Part shown: positions 54,979 through 64,000 of the stretch, piece after piece
How the letters are laid out: every line of letters starts with the position of its first letter
Position numbering within the stretch: the stretch's first letter is position 1
DNA from: Gemmatimonadota bacterium
GTDB taxonomy: Bacteria > Gemmatimonadota > Gemmatimonadetes > Gemmatimonadales > GWC2-71-9
Assembly: GCA_039588295.1 (NCBI GenBank)
Contig: JBDHAB010000006.1
Span: 96,001-160,000, forward strand
Length of the DNA: 64,000 nucleotides
Direction of reading: 5' to 3'
The notes under the pieces: model-generated
Seen by the model: only the letters and a program-made list of their open reading frames with translations
What the model was told of the DNA's origin: nothing
Database searches by the model: none
Made by a program: the position numbers and the translations under genes

Positions 54979-56271
54979 TCAGCTGTCTCCGTTGAGTTGG
55001 GAGACGTGGCTCACACGATTGCGGCCCTGGTCCTTTGAATGGTAGAGCGCGCGATCGGCCTCCGTCAGCACCTGCGAGATCCACTCCGAGTCCGGCCGGT
55101 CTTGCGGTCGGGCGAACACCGCGGTTGTGGCACCCACGCTGATCGTGATGCTGCGCTGCGGCCAGGAGGCATCCTCGGTGGCGCGTCGGAACCGCTCGCC
55201 GAGCCGGATCGATCCCGCGGGGTCGGTCTCCGGGAGAACGATTCCGAATTCCTCGCCGCCCAACCGCGCGACGTAGTCGCTGCGGCGCGCGGTATCGCGC
55301 AGGATGCGGGCGAGTTGCCTCATGACTTCGTCGCCCGCGAGATGGCCGTACTGATCGTTGTACGCCTTGAAATAATCGATGTCGAGGATGAGCAGTGACA
55401 GCGGTCGTGAGGTCCGCAGCGCGAATTCCTTCTGGAATCCCAGATGATCGAGAAAAGCGCGGCGATTCCACAACGCGGTCAGGGCATCCGTCGCGGCCAA
55501 TTCCTTCAGTTGGCTGTTCACGGCCTCAATTTCGCGGGACTGCTCGGCAACAAGCTGCTCCGCCAGTTTCCGCTCGGTGAGATCCACGATGGCACTGACC
55601 ACCAGGTTGCCTTCGGACGCGGCTACCGGGTTGAGGCCAATCTCCACCGGCATGGTGGTTCCATCGCGGCGCTGTGCGATGAGATCTCGATGCCGGCCCA
55701 TGGGCCGGACCTGGGGCGCATCCCAGTAGCGCTCGCGGTCCCGCCGATGTTGGGTGCGTGCAGCGTCTGGCACGAGGATCTCGATGGACTGACCGACGAG
55801 CTCCCCGCTGTCGTACCCGAACAGCCGCTCAGTCTCGCGGTTGGCCATCACGATGGTGCCAGTCTCGTTCGCGACCACCATGGCACAGGGCGATGACTGG
55901 ATCGCAAGTCGGAACCGCTCGTGTTGCCGCATGCGATCCGTCAGATCACGAGCAAGCACACACAGGGTTCGGTGGGCAGGATCCGGGTGCAGCGTCCACT
56001 CGAGGTGGCGGAACGTACCATCGGGAGAGCGTAGGCGGCCCTCGAACCTGGTTGCCTCCGCGCCGGCCGCGAGTTTGTCGAATTCCACCGTGATGGTGGG
56101 GACGTCGTCGGGATGCAGGAGGGCGAGCAACCCGTTCCCGATGACCTGATCCGCGCGCCAGCCCGACGTGCGCTCGAACGCCGCATTGACCTGGAGCACC
56201 TCGCGCTCGGCGCCGAGAAGGCAGAGCACGTCGGGTGAGGCGTCAAAGAGCCTGGCGAAGTCGAACTGCAT
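54979..56271 (-). CDS. PAS-PAS-GGDEF diguanylate cyclase
   Basis: Two PAS domains; TDALT, DIDYFK, RxxD I-site, GGEEF. Confidence 0.93.
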   Translation of the reverse strand: MQFDFARLFDASPDVLCLLGAEREVLQVNAAFERTSGWRADQVIGNGLLALLHPDDVPTITVEFDKLAAGAEATRFEGRLRSPDGTFRHLEWTLHPDPAHRTLCVLARDLTDRMRQHERFRLAIQSSPCAMVVANETGTIVMANRETERLFGYDSGELVGQSIEILVPDAARTQHRRDRERYWDAPQVRPMGRHRDLIAQRRDGTTMPVEIGLNPVAASEGNLVVSAIVDLTERKLAEQLVAEQSREIEAVNSQLKELAATDALTALWNRRAFLDHLGFQKEFALRTSRPLSLLILDIDYFKAYNDQYGHLAGDEVMRQLARILRDTARRSDYVARLGGEEFGIVLPETDPAGSIRLGERFRRATEDASWPQRSITISVGATTAVFARPQDRPDSEWISQVLTEADRALYHSKDQGRNRVSHVSQLNGDS

Positions 56272-56530
56272 GCGTCGTTCCTCCAGACTGCCCCCCGGAA
56301 GCCTGACGGCCGTTCTCTTCATTAGATAGGACATGCCGCGGATTGGCGCCAGTCCCCATTGGAGTCGGCCGATCGTCGCTCCAGGCTCCGGTCCGTCGTC
56401 CACCCTGCGTCGTGGTGGTCGAGAATGGGTCCGATTGGCTATCCTTCAACACAATTGACAGGACCTCCTGTGCCTCCGGGCTGTTGGGGACGAAGGACGT
56501 GACGCGTCGAGGAAGCGAGGACACACCACC

Positions 56531-57883
56531 ATGCCAGCGTTTGAGCACGTAAAGGTTCCCCAGGGGGACCTGATCACAATTGAGGGCGGTCGCCCGGTCG
56601 TCGGGGACCATCCGATCATCGGTTCGCTGCGCGGCGACGGGATCGGACTGGATATCACGCCAACGATGCAGAATGTGGTGGGGGCAGCGGTCGACCGTGC
56701 GTACGGCGGCAAGCGCGCCATCATCTGGTGCCCGCTCTTCGCCGGGCTCGAGGGGTTGCGCACGTATGGCAAGGTGCTTCCCGAGGAGACCATCGAGGCG
56801 ATCAAGTATCTCAAAGTCGCGATCAAAGGTCCCTTTACCACCCCAATCGGTGAAGAGACCCACGTGTGCCTGAACTGCGCGCACCAACAGTATCACGCCG
56901 GCACATGCGATAATTGCGGCAAGACGGATACGGTCACCGAGCGGTATCGCTCGATCAACGTCGGGCTTCGCCAAGCGATGGATCTGTTCGCGTGTGTGAG
57001 ACCCGTCCGGTACTTCGATGGTGTACCGGCACCGAACAAGTACGCCGACCGTGTGGACTTCGTGATCTTTCGAGAGAACACGGAGGACGTCTACGCCGGC
57101 CACGATTTCGAACGGGGCTCGGCGGTGGCCCGGGCGATCATCGACCTGATCAAGGAACGCACGGGCCGGCAGATCCGGGCGGACAGCGGCATCGGGGTGA
57201 AGCCGATTTCGGTCACCGGCACGAAGCGCCTCGTTCGCATGGCGTGCCAGTGGGCGATCACGCAAGACCTCCCCTCGGTGACGTTGGTGCATAAGGGCAA
57301 CATCATGAAGTTCACCGAGGGGTCGTTTGCGAAGTGGGGTTACGAGGTCGCGGCGGAGGAATTCGGCGACAGATTCGTGACCGAGAAACGCCTTTGGGAG
57401 GAGCTGGATGGCAAGCTGCCCGACGGCAAGATTCTCCTCAAAGACCGGATCGCCGACTCCATTTTCCAGCAGATTCAAACGCGTCCCGATGAGTACAGTG
57501 TGTTCGCGCTGCCCAATCTGAATGGCGATTACCTCTCCGATGCGGCGATCGCGTTGGTTGGCGGACTGGGGCTCGGGCCCGGTGCCAACATTGGAACCGA
57601 GGTCGCACTCTTCGAAGCGACGCATGGCACGGCGCCGAAATACACTGGTATGGACAAGGTGAATCCCGGCTCACTGATCCTGTCTGCGGTGATGATGCTG
57701 CATCACATGGGATGGAACGAGGCGGCGGACCTCATCGTGCACGGGATGCAACAGGCCATCAAGGACAGACACGTGACCTACGACTTGGCCCGTCTCATGA
57801 AGGGCGAGGGCCGAACCGATGTGACCGAAGTATCCTGTTCCGGCTTCGGAGAGGCGATCATCGCAAGGATGGAATCGGCGTAG
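56531..57883 (+). CDS. icd: NADP-dependent isocitrate dehydrogenase (E. coli type) with Cys-rich insert
   Basis: GDGIG, KGPFTTP, RSIN, FRENTED, VHKGNIMK, NLNGDYLSD, HGTAPKY, TYDLAR. Confidence 0.95.
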   Translation: MPAFEHVKVPQGDLITIEGGRPVVGDHPIIGSLRGDGIGLDITPTMQNVVGAAVDRAYGGKRAIIWCPLFAGLEGLRTYGKVLPEETIEAIKYLKVAIKGPFTTPIGEETHVCLNCAHQQYHAGTCDNCGKTDTVTERYRSINVGLRQAMDLFACVRPVRYFDGVPAPNKYADRVDFVIFRENTEDVYAGHDFERGSAVARAIIDLIKERTGRQIRADSGIGVKPISVTGTKRLVRMACQWAITQDLPSVTLVHKGNIMKFTEGSFAKWGYEVAAEEFGDRFVTEKRLWEELDGKLPDGKILLKDRIADSIFQQIQTRPDEYSVFALPNLNGDYLSDAAIALVGGLGLGPGANIGTEVALFEATHGTAPKYTGMDKVNPGSLILSAVMMLHHMGWNEAADLIVHGMQQAIKDRHVTYDLARLMKGEGRTDVTEVSCSGFGEAIIARMESA

Positions 57884-57914: not shown

Positions 57915-57961
57915 GAGCCCCGGAGCCCCGGAGCCGCGGAGGTCGGTGGCTGCGGGGCTTC
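57915..57961 (+). terminator. GC-rich stem-loop after icd
   Basis: AGCCCCGGAGCCGC..GTGGCTGCGGGGCT followed by T-containing tail. Confidence 0.5.
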
Positions 57962-57999
57962 GTGTCTCTAGCCGGCGGGACACGAGACCCGGAATGACC

Positions 58000-58027
58000 G
58001 GAACCCAGAGAGGCCCACCCGGTATTC
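58000..58027 (+). promoter_or_regulatory. Candidate ECF-type promoter for the DUF4159 operon
   Basis: GGAACC-N16-GTATTC. Confidence 0.45.
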
Positions 58028-58038
58028 ACAGTATTCGC

Positions 58039-58857
58039 GTGTTGGACCCTTTGACCACTGAGGACCTCCTGTCCCGAGCCGCCGCCCTGTCCGTTCTTGG
58101 CCTCGTGAGTGCCGCGGTGCTCTTCGCGGACCGTCCCGGACGGGCACCAGGGTCCGGAGGGCACCTGACGGCTGGGCAGGACACGGCCGTCGCACCACTA
58201 GGACGGTCATTCTACTTCACGAGGGTCGCGTACGGTGACTTGCTGCGTGGCCGGCGCGGGAGTTGGGCGACCGATTATCCCAAAGCCGACCGGCAGTTTC
58301 TCATCGGACTGCGACACCTCACCACCATCGACGCCTACGAGTTCGAGAACCCGATTCGCCTTGAGGACCCGCACCTGCGGCGGTTTCCCATCGTGTATGC
58401 GCTCGAAGTCGGGTACATGTCCCTCACGGATCCGGAAATCGTGGGCTTGCGGGAGTATCTTCTCGCCGGCGGACTCCTCGTAATCGACGATTTCTGGGGA
58501 ACCCGAGAGTGGGCCAACTTCGAATCGCAAATTCGGCGGGTATTGCCGGAGTACGTCATCGTCGACATTCCTCTGGATCATCCGTTGCTCCGCTCCTTCT
58601 ATCAGATCGACTCGATCCTCCAGGTGCCGGGACGCGGCGGTGGCATTGGCACTCGGCCGACGTGGCAGTACGACGGCTATGAGCCGGCGCTTCGCGGTAT
58701 CTTCGATGATCAAGGCCGGCTACTGGTCGCCATCAACTGGAACACCGATTTGGGGGATGCCTGGGAGTGGGCGGAGGATCCATGGTATCCCCTGCAATTC
58801 TCCAATTTCGCGTACCAACTGGGCGTGAACATGATTGTCTATGGCATGAGCCACTAG
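58039..58857 (+). CDS. DUF4159 domain protein (start uncertain)
   Basis: WATDYPKAD, LREYLLAGG, DDFWG, NTDLGDAWE, LGVN. Confidence 0.88.
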   Translation: MLDPLTTEDLLSRAAALSVLGLVSAAVLFADRPGRAPGSGGHLTAGQDTAVAPLGRSFYFTRVAYGDLLRGRRGSWATDYPKADRQFLIGLRHLTTIDAYEFENPIRLEDPHLRRFPIVYALEVGYMSLTDPEIVGLREYLLAGGLLVIDDFWGTREWANFESQIRRVLPEYVIVDIPLDHPLLRSFYQIDSILQVPGRGGGIGTRPTWQYDGYEPALRGIFDDQGRLLVAINWNTDLGDAWEWAEDPWYPLQFSNFAYQLGVNMIVYGMSH

Positions 58858-58861
58858 CACA

Positions 58862-61150
58862 ATGGTCGACTGGCTGTTTGTTGCGTTGTTCAAGTATCGT
58901 CTCGTCGTGTTCGAGCGGGGCGATCTGGTGTTCGACGCTCCGTGGCCGCTCGCCGTGGTGCTTCTCGCGGGTGCGGCCGTTGCGGTGCCCGCGACCGTCA
59001 TCTATGCGCGGACACACGGGCGGCTCGAGCGGCGGGACCGCGTGATACTCGCCGGGCTTCGTCTCGGGGCGATCGCGGTGCTCGTGTTCTGCTTGGCCCG
59101 ACCCATGCTGGTGATTGCCACCGTCGTCCCGCAACAGAACTTCCTCGGCATTCTCGTCGACGACTCCCGTAGCATGCGGATCCCGGATCAGTCCGGTGCA
59201 CCGCGCGGCAACTACGTCGGCGCCCAGTTCAGCCCGGACGGAAGCGAACTGTTGTCCGGTCTTTCGGAGCGCTTCAAGCTTCGGTTCTTTCGGTTTGCCG
59301 AGCACATTGAGCGGGTGGACGATGTGGGCGCGTTGGGCTACGCGGGCCGGCGAACGGATCTCGGACAGGCGCTTCATTCTGCACGGCGTGAGCTGGCGGG
59401 GGTGCCGCTCGCGGGTCTCGTCGTGCTCACCGACGGCGCCGACAACTCGGGGACGCCCCTCACCGAAACCCTACTGCAACTCAAGGCTGCCGGCGTACCC
59501 GTTCACACTGTGGGCCTGGGGTCGGAACGGTTCGAGAAGGACATCGCGCTACGGCGCGTTGCCCCGCCGCGAGCGGTACTGCGGGGCTCCTCCGTGTCGG
59601 TCGACGTGACCGTGACGCAGAGTGGATTCGGACGGGAAACCGTCCGACTGACGGTTGAGGATGCCGGTCGGATCCTCAGCTCCCAGGATGTGCGGCTCCC
59701 CGCCGGTGACGAGCCGGTGACGGTGCCGGTCCACTTCACGGCAGAGGAGTCCGGACCTCGAGTGTTCCGCTTCCGCATCGAACCGCACGAAGACGAGATC
59801 GTGACGGAGAACAACACGTTGGAGGCTCTCATCGTCGTGGAGGATGACCGCAGGAAGATCCTCTACTTTGAGGGAGAACCCCGGTTCGAGGTCAAGTTCC
59901 TGCGACGTGCCATCGCGGAAGACGAGAACCTCCACGTGGTTGTATTACAGCGCACCGCGGAGAACAAGTTCTACCGTCTCGACGTCGACGATCCGGATGA
60001 GCTGGAGGGCGGGTTCCCGGACACTCGTGAGGAGCTGTTCGCGTACGATGGCCTGATCCTCGGCAGCGTTGAGGCGAGCTTCTTCACGCTGGACCAGCTT
60101 CGGATGATCGGGGAGTTCGCGAGCCAGCGTGGGGGCGCGCTCCTCACGCTGGGTGGACGGCACGCGTTCGTGGAAGGCGGGTACGCCGGTACCCCCCTCG
60201 CGGAGGCGCTTCCCGTCGTGCTTCAGCAAGACGCGGCGAACGAACACCGGTTCTTTGCGGAGGTGAAGGTCGAGCTCACTCCGTTTGGGCGCTCCCACCC
60301 AGTCACCCAACTGGCAGCTTCGGCGGACGAGTCGGAAGCGAGGTGGAAGGAGCTGCCGCCGCTGTCGACTCTCAACCCATTGGGCGAGGTCAAGCCGGGT
60401 GCCAGTACACTGCTCTTGGGTCGTACAGAGGATGCCACCGATTCGTATGTCGTGCTCGCGTATCAGCGCTACGGCCGTGGAAAGGTGGTGGCGTTCCCGG
60501 TGCAGGACTCGTGGCAGTGGCAGATGCATGCAGACGTACCGCTCGACGATCTGACGCACGAGACGTTCTGGCGGCAGTTGCTGCGGTGGCTCGTGAGCGA
60601 CGTGACGGACCACGTGCGCGCGCTGACCTCCGCGGACCGGACGGAGCGTGGGATTCCGGTAACGGTGACAGCCGAGGTGACGGATTCCGGTTACGTCCGC
60701 GTGAACGGTGCCGAAGTATTTGCGACGGTCACGGCCCCCAGTGGAGACGTGCGGCGGGTTCCAATGGAGTGGACGGTGGAGCGAGACGGTGAGTATCGAA
60801 CCGAGTTCGCACCTGAGGAAGACGGACTCTACGAGATCAGCGTGCAAGCGGAGCAGGAGGGAACGTCATTCGGCCAGGCTCGATCGTTTGTGCAGGTGGG
60901 GGACATGCACGCCGAGTTCTTCGACGCGGAGATGCAAGCGGGACTGCTCCAGCGGGTTGCCGAGGAGACCGGTGGACACTTCTATACGCCGGCTACCGTG
61001 GGATCCTTGCCGGAGGATGTGAGTTTTACGGAGAGTGGCACGACGGTGCACGAAGAGCGGGATCTCTGGGATATGCCGGTGCTTCTGATTCTGCTGCTCG
61101 GTCTGTTCGGGGCGGAATGGGGTTATCGCCGCACCAGAGGGCTGGCATGA
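58862..61150 (+). CDS. Membrane protein with VWA (MIDAS), Ig-like and GATase-like domains
   Basis: N-terminal TMs, DDSRS/TD/LTDG MIDAS, EGEPRFE, YGRG, C-terminal TM..EWGYRR. Confidence 0.85.
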   Translation: MVDWLFVALFKYRLVVFERGDLVFDAPWPLAVVLLAGAAVAVPATVIYARTHGRLERRDRVILAGLRLGAIAVLVFCLARPMLVIATVVPQQNFLGILVDDSRSMRIPDQSGAPRGNYVGAQFSPDGSELLSGLSERFKLRFFRFAEHIERVDDVGALGYAGRRTDLGQALHSARRELAGVPLAGLVVLTDGADNSGTPLTETLLQLKAAGVPVHTVGLGSERFEKDIALRRVAPPRAVLRGSSVSVDVTVTQSGFGRETVRLTVEDAGRILSSQDVRLPAGDEPVTVPVHFTAEESGPRVFRFRIEPHEDEIVTENNTLEALIVVEDDRRKILYFEGEPRFEVKFLRRAIAEDENLHVVVLQRTAENKFYRLDVDDPDELEGGFPDTREELFAYDGLILGSVEASFFTLDQLRMIGEFASQRGGALLTLGGRHAFVEGGYAGTPLAEALPVVLQQDAANEHRFFAEVKVELTPFGRSHPVTQLAASADESEARWKELPPLSTLNPLGEVKPGASTLLLGRTEDATDSYVVLAYQRYGRGKVVAFPVQDSWQWQMHADVPLDDLTHETFWRQLLRWLVSDVTDHVRALTSADRTERGIPVTVTAEVTDSGYVRVNGAEVFATVTAPSGDVRRVPMEWTVERDGEYRTEFAPEEDGLYEISVQAEQEGTSFGQARSFVQVGDMHAEFFDAEMQAGLLQRVAEETGGHFYTPATVGSLPEDVSFTESGTTVHEERDLWDMPVLLILLLGLFGAEWGYRRTRGLA

Positions 61151-62145
61151 CCCGGTCTCTCGGGATCGCGGCGCTCCTCCTGATCGCCCTGGTGCTGGTA
61201 CCACGCGCTGTGGCGCAGACCTATCTGGTCGTTGTTGGAGGAATCGGCGGCGAGCCACGCTACTCCCGTGCGTTTGACGAGTGGTGCACGACCCTCGTCG
61301 CAGCAGCCGGCGAGCGGCTGGGCGTACCGCAGGGGCAGATCGTCTATCTAGCAGCGGCGCCTGCCGGACCGCCGGCCACCGATACGTCGACCAAGGCGAA
61401 TGTGGAATCCGTGCTGACTGCCCTCGCGGGGCGGGCGGAAGCGGATGCGAGCGTGTTCATCGTGCTCGTCGGTCACGGAAGCGCAGTGGGTGGGGCCTCG
61501 CGCTTTCATCTTCCGGGTCCCGACATCACCGCGCAGAACTTCGCTGCGTTGCTCGACGGGTTTCCCACGCAGCAAGTCGTCTTCGTGGCGCTGTCGAGTG
61601 CGAGCGGCGGCTTCGTTCAAGCGCTTTCAGGTGAACGGCGCACCATCATTACGGCGACGAGGTCCGGCTTCGAGCGCAATGAGACCGTGTTTCCCGAGTA
61701 CTTCGTCGAAGCGTTCGCCGCAACGGGGGCGGACACGGACAAGGACGAGCGGGTCTCGGTGCTCGAAGCATTCAACTATGCTCGTCGTGAGGTGCGTCGA
61801 TCGTACGAGAGCAACGGGCAGCTCCTGACCGAACATGCGTTGCTGGACGACAACGGCGACCGCGAAGGGAGTACGGAGCCGGACGCACAGGCGGGCGACG
61901 GGGCAGTGGCGAGTCAACTGTTCTTGCTCGGGACCCCTCGTGTGGCTGCGGCCACCGTTCCCGGGGACTCGGCATTGGTTCCGCTCTATGAAGAGCGAAC
62001 ACGGCTCGAACGGGCAGTCGCCGAATTGCGAACACGGAAGGAGCGAATGACGTCGGAGGCATACGAACGGGAACTCGAACGGCTGCTGCTCGCGCTGGCC
62101 CGAGTAAGCCGTGCCATCCGCGAGCGCGAGGGAGGGCCACGGTGA
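61147..62145 (+). CDS. Secreted caspase/C13-like-fold protein, probably lacking catalytic Cys, with C-terminal coiled coil
   Basis: VLVGHGS, SSASGGF, ITAT, DTDKDERVSVLEAF. Confidence 0.65.
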   Translation: MTRSLGIAALLLIALVLVPRAVAQTYLVVVGGIGGEPRYSRAFDEWCTTLVAAAGERLGVPQGQIVYLAAAPAGPPATDTSTKANVESVLTALAGRAEADASVFIVLVGHGSAVGGASRFHLPGPDITAQNFAALLDGFPTQQVVFVALSSASGGFVQALSGERRTIITATRSGFERNETVFPEYFVEAFAATGADTDKDERVSVLEAFNYARREVRRSYESNGQLLTEHALLDDNGDREGSTEPDAQAGDGAVASQLFLLGTPRVAAATVPGDSALVPLYEERTRLERAVAELRTRKERMTSEAYERELERLLLALARVSRAIREREGGPR

Positions 62146-64000
62146 AGACCACCCGGGCACGCTCGACACTCGCCCTGGCTTGCATCGCGGCGCTCACGGC
62201 AATGGTGGCCCAGCCGGCGGGAGCGCAAAACGACCTTGCGGCGGCCCGCGCTGCGTATCTCGCCGGTCGCTACGACGACGCAATCGCGCGATTCTCACGG
62301 CTTGCGGAACGCCAACCCGAGGCTGCGGTCTCGGTGCGCGGACTCGTTCAGACGCTGACGGAAGTCGGGCGATACGACCGGGCTACGAGGGTGGCGCGCC
62401 GCTTCGTCGAGCAAAACCCGACCTCGTCGGAGCTGTGGAACGCGCTAGGTGAAACGCTGGTGCTGCAAGGACGCCGCGAGGACGCCGAAGCAGCGTTTGC
62501 CAAGGCCGTTGCGGGTGGTGCCTCCGACAGCCTGACGGCGCGCCTCAACCTCGCGGTGCTACGATACCGGCAAGGGGATGTCGCTCGGGCCCTTCGGCAG
62601 TTCGACTCCTTCATCGACGTCTACAATCGCAGCACCGAGCTCACCTCGACACAACTGACCGCCGTGGCCACGGCGGTTCGGTACCTCGGTGTTGCCGATT
62701 GGCAGCTCTACGAGGATGCCTTGCGCGCGTACGACGAGGCGAGTGCCGCCGACCGCGACAACTTCGACGCGCAGCTATTGGTTGGCGACCTGTTCCTCGA
62801 GAAGTACGAGGGCACCGAGGCGCGACAGACGTTCGACGCGATCCTCGCGAGGAACCCGCAGCACCCGCGGGCCCTGCTTGGCCTGGCACGTACGCGTCGC
62901 TTTGCGGGCGGATCCGAGGCGATGGCGCTGGTCGAACGAAGTCTCGAGGTCAACCCGAGCCTCGTGCCGGCCCGGGTATTTCGTGCGTCCCTGCTGATCG
63001 AGGTCGATGCGTATGACGAGGCAGCGCAGGAGATCGATCGTGCGCTCGCGGTCGATCCCACATCACTCGAGGCCCTAGCGGTCCTCGGCGCCATCGAGTT
63101 TCTGCGCGGCGACGCCGAAGGGTTCTGGGAGACCCGTCGTCGGGCACTGGCGCTCAACCCGCGCTTTGCGGAGTTCTACAATACCTTGGCGGAGCTGAGT
63201 GCCCGGAACCGGTTGTACCACGAGGCAGTGCGACTCGCGTCGCAGGCCGTCGGAATGGACTCAACGTCGTGGCGCGGATTCGGCCTGCTCGGAATTAATC
63301 AGCTCCGTATCGGCTCGATGCGGGACGGTCGCGCCAACCTCGAGACGGCGTTTCGGGGAAACCCGTACGACGCATGGACGAAGAATACCCTCGACCTTCT
63401 CGACACGCTCGAGCAGTACGAGGAGCGCGCCACTCGCCGGTTTCGACTCGTCATCGACGCGAAGGAGGCGGATCTGCTCTCGTTGTACGCCGGGGAGCTC
63501 GCGGAGGATGCCTACGAGCGGCTGGCAGCCCGCTACGACTATTCACCGCCGGCCCCGGTTCGCATCGAGATCTATCCGCACCATGCGGACTTCTCGGTAC
63601 GCACGGTCGGGCTCGTGGGACTCGGGGCCCTGGGGGTGAGCTTCGGCCCCGTGGTAGCCATGGACTCACCGTCGGCGCGGCCTGCCGGGTCGTTTCACTG
63701 GGGATCCACGCTGTGGCATGAAATCGCGCACACGTTTCACCTGGGGATGAGCAATCACAAAGTCCCCCGGTGGTTCACGGAAGGGCTTGCCGTGTTCGAG
63801 GAGCGGCGCGCCAGAACGGGGTGGGGTGACAATGTCACCCCCGGCTTTCTCGTGGCGTACCGGGACGGGCGCCTGTTGCCGGTGAGCGAGCTGAACAACG
63901 GCTTCATGCGTCCGGCCTATCCGGAGCAGCTCGGGTTCTCGTACTACGAGGCGTCCCTGGTCTGTGAGTTGATTGAGCGGGACCACGGCCCGGACGCACT
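62142..64000 (+). CDS. Secreted TPR protein with gluzincin-like metallopeptidase domain, runs off right edge
   Basis: Not in ORF track. GTGA overlap; MKTTRARSTLALACIAAL..; TPRs; LWHEIAHTFH..VPRWFTEGLA. Confidence 0.88.
   Translation, partial: MKTTRARSTLALACIAALTAMVAQPAGAQNDLAAARAAYLAGRYDDAIARFSRLAERQPEAAVSVRGLVQTLTEVGRYDRATRVARRFVEQNPTSSELWNALGETLVLQGRREDAEAAFAKAVAGGASDSLTARLNLAVLRYRQGDVARALRQFDSFIDVYNRSTELTSTQLTAVATAVRYLGVADWQLYEDALRAYDEASAADRDNFDAQLLVGDLFLEKYEGTEARQTFDAILARNPQHPRALLGLARTRRFAGGSEAMALVERSLEVNPSLVPARVFRASLLIEVDAYDEAAQEIDRALAVDPTSLEALAVLGAIEFLRGDAEGFWETRRRALALNPRFAEFYNTLAELSARNRLYHEAVRLASQAVGMDSTSWRGFGLLGINQLRIGSMRDGRANLETAFRGNPYDAWTKNTLDLLDTLEQYEERATRRFRLVIDAKEADLLSLYAGELAEDAYERLAARYDYSPPAPVRIEIYPHHADFSVRTVGLVGLGALGVSFGPVVAMDSPSARPAGSFHWGSTLWHEIAHTFHLGMSNHKVPRWFTEGLAVFEERRARTGWGDNVTPGFLVAYRDGRLLPVSELNNGFMRPAYPEQLGFSYYEASLVCELIERDHGPDA

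Follow-up and report, generated by a model that had tools for sequence, protein, structure and literature searches.

Few metabolic enzymes have been studied as closely as isocitrate dehydrogenase (IDH), whose phosphorylation loop is a textbook site of regulation; what, then, is a four-cysteine module doing inside that loop? The question is raised by an icd gene from a Gemmatimonadota bacterium, which lies in the 64,000-nucleotide stretch of DNA analysed here (the window). In E. coli the serine of this loop, Ser113, binds isocitrate and is the target of AceK, as described in PMC3521221. The features that bear on the question are listed here, with the basis of each assignment in brackets.

56531–57883, plus strand: icd, homodimeric subfamily-I NADP-type IDH, 450 aa, stand-alone gene (TIGR00183, PRK07006, Foldseek match to 2iv0)
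56747–56749, plus strand: Leu73, in place of E. coli Glu72; putative surface on which the ribbon docks (accompanies the insert in both clades)
56852–56947, plus strand: 32-residue insert E108–Y139 in the phosphorylation loop, in place of GGI; predicted to form a small beta-ribbon (alignments, AF2 models)
56867–56878, plus strand: first knuckle, Cys113-x2-Cys116 (invariant in 107/107 aligned carriers from both clades)
56906–56917, plus strand: second knuckle, Cys126-x2-Cys129 (invariant in the same 107/107)
56951–56953, plus strand: Ser141, equivalent of E. coli Ser113 (alignment; role as described in PMC3521221)
57362–57439, plus strand: equivalent of the AceK-recognition segment, A. fulgidus-like and not E. 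coli-like (alignments)
57638–57643, plus strand: Lys370-Tyr371, NADP-specificity pair, E. coli K344 and Y345 (alignment; PMC3521221)

Outside the loop, the protein is a familiar one. Judged by its sequence, the open reading frame is an intact subfamily-I NADP-IDH, scoring above the curated cut-offs of both TIGR00183 (568.6 bits vs. 567.3) and PRK07006 (524 vs. 490), and its closest named relatives are from Gemmatimonadales. Twenty E. coli positions were mapped onto it, and 19 of these—catalytic, metal, and NADP residues, with Ser113 as Ser141—are identical. The isocitrate, metal, and catalytic residues T105, S113, N115, R119, R129, R153, Y160, K230, D283, D307, and D311 all match at aligned positions, and the NADP determinants K344, Y345, Y391, and R395 are found as K370, Y371, Y417, and R421; the claim of the first-pass annotation that these motifs are intact is borne out. 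The single exception is Glu72, a subfamily-I residue that is replaced by Leu73. The full AF2 model has a mean pLDDT of 83.8 and matches A. fulgidus IDH (2iv0) in Foldseek with TM 0.84/0.92; the fold is shared, at TM 0.80–0.85, with E. coli Icd (1ai2, 3icd) and with the A. fulgidus (2iv0), A. pernix (1tyo), and S. tokodaii (2dht) enzymes.

The loop itself is another matter. The insert, EETHVCLNCAHQQYHAGTCDNCGKTDTVTERY, is 32 residues long and sits between TTPIG and RSIN, where E. coli Icd has TTPVG-GGI-RSLN; the net gain is 29 amino acids, in frame, with positions 56852–56953 encoding E108–S141. Alignment confirmed this description, first made from the letters of the sequence. The loop thereby grows to 38 residues with its Cys4 module, compared with the nine (T105–S113) that PMC3521221 describes for subfamily I. 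Cys113, Cys116, Cys126, and Cys129 form a CxxC-x9-CxxC pattern, and His111, His118, and His122 are also present. In all 20 close solved sequences the best aligned stretch begins only at residue 139 or 140, and the two such alignments that we inspected are both interrupted at the insert; no IDH among the close matches of solved structure spans it. A literature search, with subscription journals and supplements outside its scope, found no description of the insert, which agrees with the earlier statement that no described IDH carries one. Enlargement of this loop is in itself already known from subfamily-II IDHs (PMC3521221).

Two trivial origins were examined and rejected. A frameshift or assembly artefact is ruled out by the eight related genomes with an 81–87% identical IDH, all of which carry the insert, and by the insert-bearing majority (117/120) among the best matches to residues 150–450. 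An intein was likewise rejected: at 32 aa, the insert starts with Glu and ends with Tyr, and no Hint or intein family appears among the Pfam and NCBIfam domain matches, just as the first reading of the sequence had noted an absence of intein hallmarks.

Conservation of the cysteines was assessed in two ways. A search with residues 100–148 returned 407 proteins at 90% clustering, and all four cysteines are present in 120/120 of the best 120 of these 407, which were aligned. Such a search selects for the insert, so it was repeated with residues 150–450 only; 117 of the best 120 matches have CxxC-x9-CxxC and the other three are fragments that start after the loop, meaning that every relative covering the loop (117/117) keeps all four cysteines. 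Across 74 genes, pooled pairwise dN/dS comes to 0.085 for the insert vs. 0.142 elsewhere, with synonymous Cys codons in use—values that are indicative only, with loci picked by insert patterns (a bias) and synonymous sites near saturation. The insert is apparently under purifying selection.

The module extends beyond this group of proteins. When a profile of the insert was run against 1.84 billion representatives it gave eight matches, six of them IDHs or IDH fragments and two of them unrelated CxxC-repeat proteins, and through one match a second clade came to light, whose 58 proteins are mostly 54–60% identical to the window IDH, with named members from Elusimicrobia, KSB1, Cloacimonetes, and Armatimonadota. 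The spacer between the knuckles was parsed in 57 of these (one partial protein was left unparsed) and is x14 in 55, x12 in one, and x9 in one. A joint alignment of 107 carriers from both clades shows the four cysteines, V112, L114, and R138 to be invariant (107/107), Q120 to be present in 106/107, and position 139 to be always F or Y. The spacer therefore varies in length and sequence while the strands joining ribbon to enzyme (V112, L114, Q120, R138, and F/Y139) stay constant, the pattern that a docked structural unit should show. None of H111, H118, and H122 is conserved in the second clade, nor are they invariant in the x9 clade; the cysteine half of the pattern first annotated thus holds and the histidine half does not, leaving a Cys4 site. 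Histidines as metal ligands were considered and set aside as not needed. Within the x9 clade several polar residues are as constant as the cysteines or nearly so—E108, E109, T110, Q119, and Q120 in 117/117 and D133 in 116/117. At the position of E. coli Glu72, Leu is found in 54/56 and 49/51 carriers of the two clades, and in 0/21 plus a further 0/6 non-carriers.

Of 156 stretches in GTDB genomes that encode the x9 insert, 80 loci were kept, and these belong to Gemmatimonadota, Acidobacteriota, Krumholzibacteriota, Eisenbacteria, Planctomycetota, Myxococcota, Fermentibacteria, Aminicenantes, Hydrogenedentota, and others. The distribution is patchy in the window's own phylum (11/401 genomes, 4/146 genera), and in the phylum of genome G049 the insert is carried by 10/61 genomes, four of them carriers already known, with plain IDH in six. 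A tree built with the insert removed separates 19 carriers from 17 non-carriers by a 99/99 branch, and phyla are intermingled inside the x9 clade; the tree is unrooted (LG+G4) and holds no archaeal or Bacillus-type rows, so that a single origin is consistent with it but not proven. The insert-bearing protein is the sole E. coli-type IDH found in 49 of 50 carrier genomes, which represent 50 of the 80 loci and include three that are the same genomes as same-genus relatives. On these sequence comparisons, the variant probably arose once and was then passed on horizontally, in most cases replacing the E. coli-type icd already present. The one exception, genome G067, has in addition an E. coli-type IDH that lacks the insert (60% identity). 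At another locus (L058, G057:C11) the carrier icd is split into two frames near residue 350–360, by a frameshift or an assembly error. The window's genome holds four more Iso_dh-family genes (L031–L034, on C31, C1, C1, and C7): a shorter one like NAD-type IDH but below the cut-off (PRK08997, 444 vs. 510), a 3-isopropylmalate dehydrogenase above its cut-off, and two further decarboxylating dehydrogenases. Monomeric IDH was not found in this genome, which is 96% complete.

The gene appears to have no fixed company. When 3,502 ORFs from the 80 x9 loci were clustered, only icd and its shadow frames were common, and real neighbours recur in at most about 11/80 loci; there was no conserved neighbour in cis. 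In the window, icd lies between a divergent PAS-PAS-GGDEF gene (54979–56403, minus strand) and a DUF4159 gene, which is followed by large membrane or TPR-like genes (57946–64000, plus strand), and the neighbours of icd are not conserved around other carriers. A promoter scan gave no promoter-like site and one terminator-like site, on the minus strand and at chance level.

What kind of module is this? The window insert matches Pfam zinc-ribbon families (DUF7129, DZR_2, Zn_ribbon_LapB, PF23470) with a best E of 0.0015 and 18.4 bits, vs. a gathering cut-off of 27, and 6/15 second-clade proteins match PF23470, a rubredoxin-like zinc ribbon, at E 0.08–0.3; all of these are short queries. In the full AF2 model the insert has a pLDDT of 57–83 by block, with residues 101–110 at only 57, and when modelled alone it reaches 71.7 with short strands. 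Its fold matches all fall below significance (best Z 3.8 among 48,161 chains, no Foldseek E ≤ 0.001), and the lists are headed by eL40, MCM, LapB, adenylate kinase, rubrerythrin, and nigerythrin chains, which we take to be Cys4 metal domains. No donor family for the ribbon reached significance in the sequence or fold scans. The zinc-ribbon-like identity first proposed is upheld by the conserved Cys4 and by the company of zinc ribbons and rubredoxin knuckles among the matches, though every match is below its cut-off; similarly, structure prediction gives a small beta-ribbon with short strands, but at modest confidence and with weak fold matches. The insert is likely a Cys4 module that binds zinc, although the metal could be Fe instead.

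The ribbon may also have a seat on the enzyme. When the insert was cut out and docked, with Zn, on the remainder of the enzyme, the score was 0.60, vs. 0.00 for the best control, with contacts agreeing in at least 93% between runs and a partner pLDDT of at least 90. The docking mark is reached by 116/157 solved and 2/215 mismatched pairs, and of these only 18 solved pairs, but both mismatches, score no higher than 0.60; because the two pieces come from one chain with abutting ends, and their alignments from the same rows, the placement is partly expected and the evidence is modest. It lends weak support to the insert packing on the enzyme body. From the Rossmann-like topology, Leu73 would follow the strand adjacent to the one leading into the insert, a position that suggests a hydrophobic patch near Leu73/Leu76 as the seat for V112, L114, and F139.

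The explanation that we favour, with about even confidence, is a structural one. The four cysteines would bind one zinc ion and so form a small ribbon; the ribbon, predicted to pack on the large domain against its hydrophobic seat, would brace a normally floppy active-site loop bearing Thr104 and Ser141; and stability, domain closure, or isocitrate affinity would be tuned as a result, in place of an on/off switch. PMC6313988 describes the equivalent loop as disordered in S. tokodaii IDH and as touching both isocitrate and NADP in A. pernix IDH. A structural role fits the cysteines kept in both clades, the change of Glu72 to Leu that accompanies the insert in each, the lack of a conserved neighbour gene as a candidate partner, and the analogy with the optional zinc site of Gram-positive adenylate kinases. 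Against it, the co-change at Leu73 could be shared ancestry only, and the near-invariant E108, E109, Q119, and D133 of the x9 clade are more than a plain ribbon needs and could mark a partner or ligand site.

That last point is where other explanations enter. A docking module, whose ribbon surface binds a nucleotide effector or a protein (a regulator, a second IDH dimer, or a neighbouring enzyme of the TCA cycle, for instance aconitase), would account for the constant polar residues, and small zinc ribbons often mediate protein contacts; however, most of these residues differ in the second clade, and a gene that moves alone between phyla is hard to square with a dedicated partner. We regard this explanation as unlikely, and we would say much the same of a redox or metal switch, in which the Thr104/Ser141 loop moves when the Cys4 site is oxidised or when its metal, whether Zn or rubredoxin-type Fe, is lost or exchanged; IDH activity would rise or fall accordingly, and the supply of NADPH or the flux through the TCA cycle would follow oxygen or metal status. 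A structural role is the rule for Cys4 ribbons, which counts against a switch, as do the lack of a linked redox partner gene and the want of a shared niche: some carriers belong to lineages described as strictly anaerobic (a Cloacimonetes protein) and others bear oxidases, so that no single oxygen niche emerges. In favour of a switch, the Cys4 site is part of the very loop that binds substrate, a PF00115 match is present in 41/51 carrier genomes, so many may meet oxygen or NO, the weak matches include PF23470 and the rubredoxin-type domains of LapB, rubrerythrin, and nigerythrin, and bioRxiv 2021.05.25.445643 reports that a LOV2 insert engineered at other loops can switch yeast IDH. The larger claim that might be built on this—a widespread, horizontally spreading class of IDH whose catalytic loop has a Cys4 metal centre (Zn, or rubredoxin-type Fe) that senses redox state or metal, so that bacteria lacking AceK control isocitrate flux and NADPH supply directly and with no kinase—is in our judgement improbable.

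The first-pass annotation had proposed control of TCA flux in place of AceK or by blocking it, and this part is not supported as the main explanation; that the insert shields Ser141 from AceK or replaces AceK control at the glyoxylate branch point now seems very unlikely. Neither aceK (PF06315) nor isocitrate lyase was found in the window's 96% complete genome, and aceK was found in 0/50 carrier genomes. Seven of 40 relatives have aceK, none of them among the eight carriers, and the phylum as a whole has it in 78/401 genomes (78/390 non-carriers vs. 0/11 carriers). The correlation is complete in these counts but not significant by genus, where 24/146 overall vs. 0/4 carrier genera would be expected about half the time by chance, and most non-carriers are also without aceK. 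Isocitrate lyase matches occur, without aceK, in 11/50 carrier genomes, which could suit a substitute for AceK; the other 39/50 show no match, so that a glyoxylate branch in need of regulation is often missing, and an insert has nothing to block in a cell that lacks AceK. A longer loop is said in PMC3521221 to hinder phosphorylation of subfamily-II IDHs, a point in favour of shielding; however, the segment recognised by AceK in E. coli IDH (PMC3521221, PMC12707098) already resembles A. fulgidus in the window protein, which weakens any idea of blocking or replacing AceK. PMC6313988 describes archaeal IDHs as lacking elements needed by AceK, and the one aceK-adjacent icd that we inspected (G033, locus L029) has an E. 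coli-like segment. A neutral passenger, whether a tolerated insert or the remnant of an intein or other homing element, is extremely unlikely. The loop does tolerate changes of length across IDH subfamilies (PMC3521221), but there is no loss or decay in 117/117 relatives, the insert has the lower dN/dS (on loci chosen with the bias noted above), six of its eight profile matches are IDHs or IDH fragments, and no intein family was matched.

Known systems offer partial parallels. Subfamily-II IDHs such as human IDH1 and the T. maritima enzyme have the same loop enlarged, but with an alpha-helical addition of about 18 residues and no Cys4 (PMC3521221), whereas the body of the window IDH is subfamily I. 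An optional Cys4 module on a moving part over an active site is also seen in Gram-positive adenylate kinases, whose LID carries a CxxC-x16-CxxC/D zinc site (bioRxiv 840603) and which the insert matches weakly in fold (1zin, 4qbi). The LID exists with or without zinc, whereas in the window IDH a whole module is added, and the enzymes differ. The zinc site of the adenylate kinase LID has a stabilising role. At the level of the ribbon, eL40, the MCM zinc motif, the LapB rubredoxin domain, the rubrerythrin C-terminal domain, and the x9 ribbons of Cas12f1 (9i8y) share the arrangement of two CxxC knuckles on a short beta-ribbon; sequence and fold matches of the insert to such small domains are weak, none at a curated cut-off or a significant Z.

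This is, then, a real, selected, and apparently undescribed variant of a known enzyme—a conserved loop architecture found in hundreds of protein clusters and many uncultured phyla. If structural, it would illustrate how an active-site loop can take up a metal ribbon; if a switch, it would control the TCA cycle in a new way and give the design of sensor-controlled enzymes a natural model.

Several smaller observations concern AceK and the glyoxylate branch. AceK is usually regarded as proteobacterial; in the window's family 63/166 genomes have aceK, and at G015:C233, G020:C4, G022:C181, G014:C154, and G033:C3 (loci L116–L118) aceK and a plain icd stand on opposite strands, no more than about 2 kb apart. 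The isocitrate lyase matches in carrier genomes G049, G051, G056, G066, G069, G077, and G084 fall in unusually long open frames (about 760–870 aa, one of 1449 aa), matched in two pieces, which suggests a long ICL2-like or fused form. The x9 clade also has a short EGR insertion of its own near the C-terminus (57806–57814, residues 426–428), with E426 and R428 in 21/21, that is absent from second-clade and plain IDHs; together with further x9-clade-specific changes at R34, K268, and Q316/T317, it may provide partners for the invariant acidic residues of the insert.
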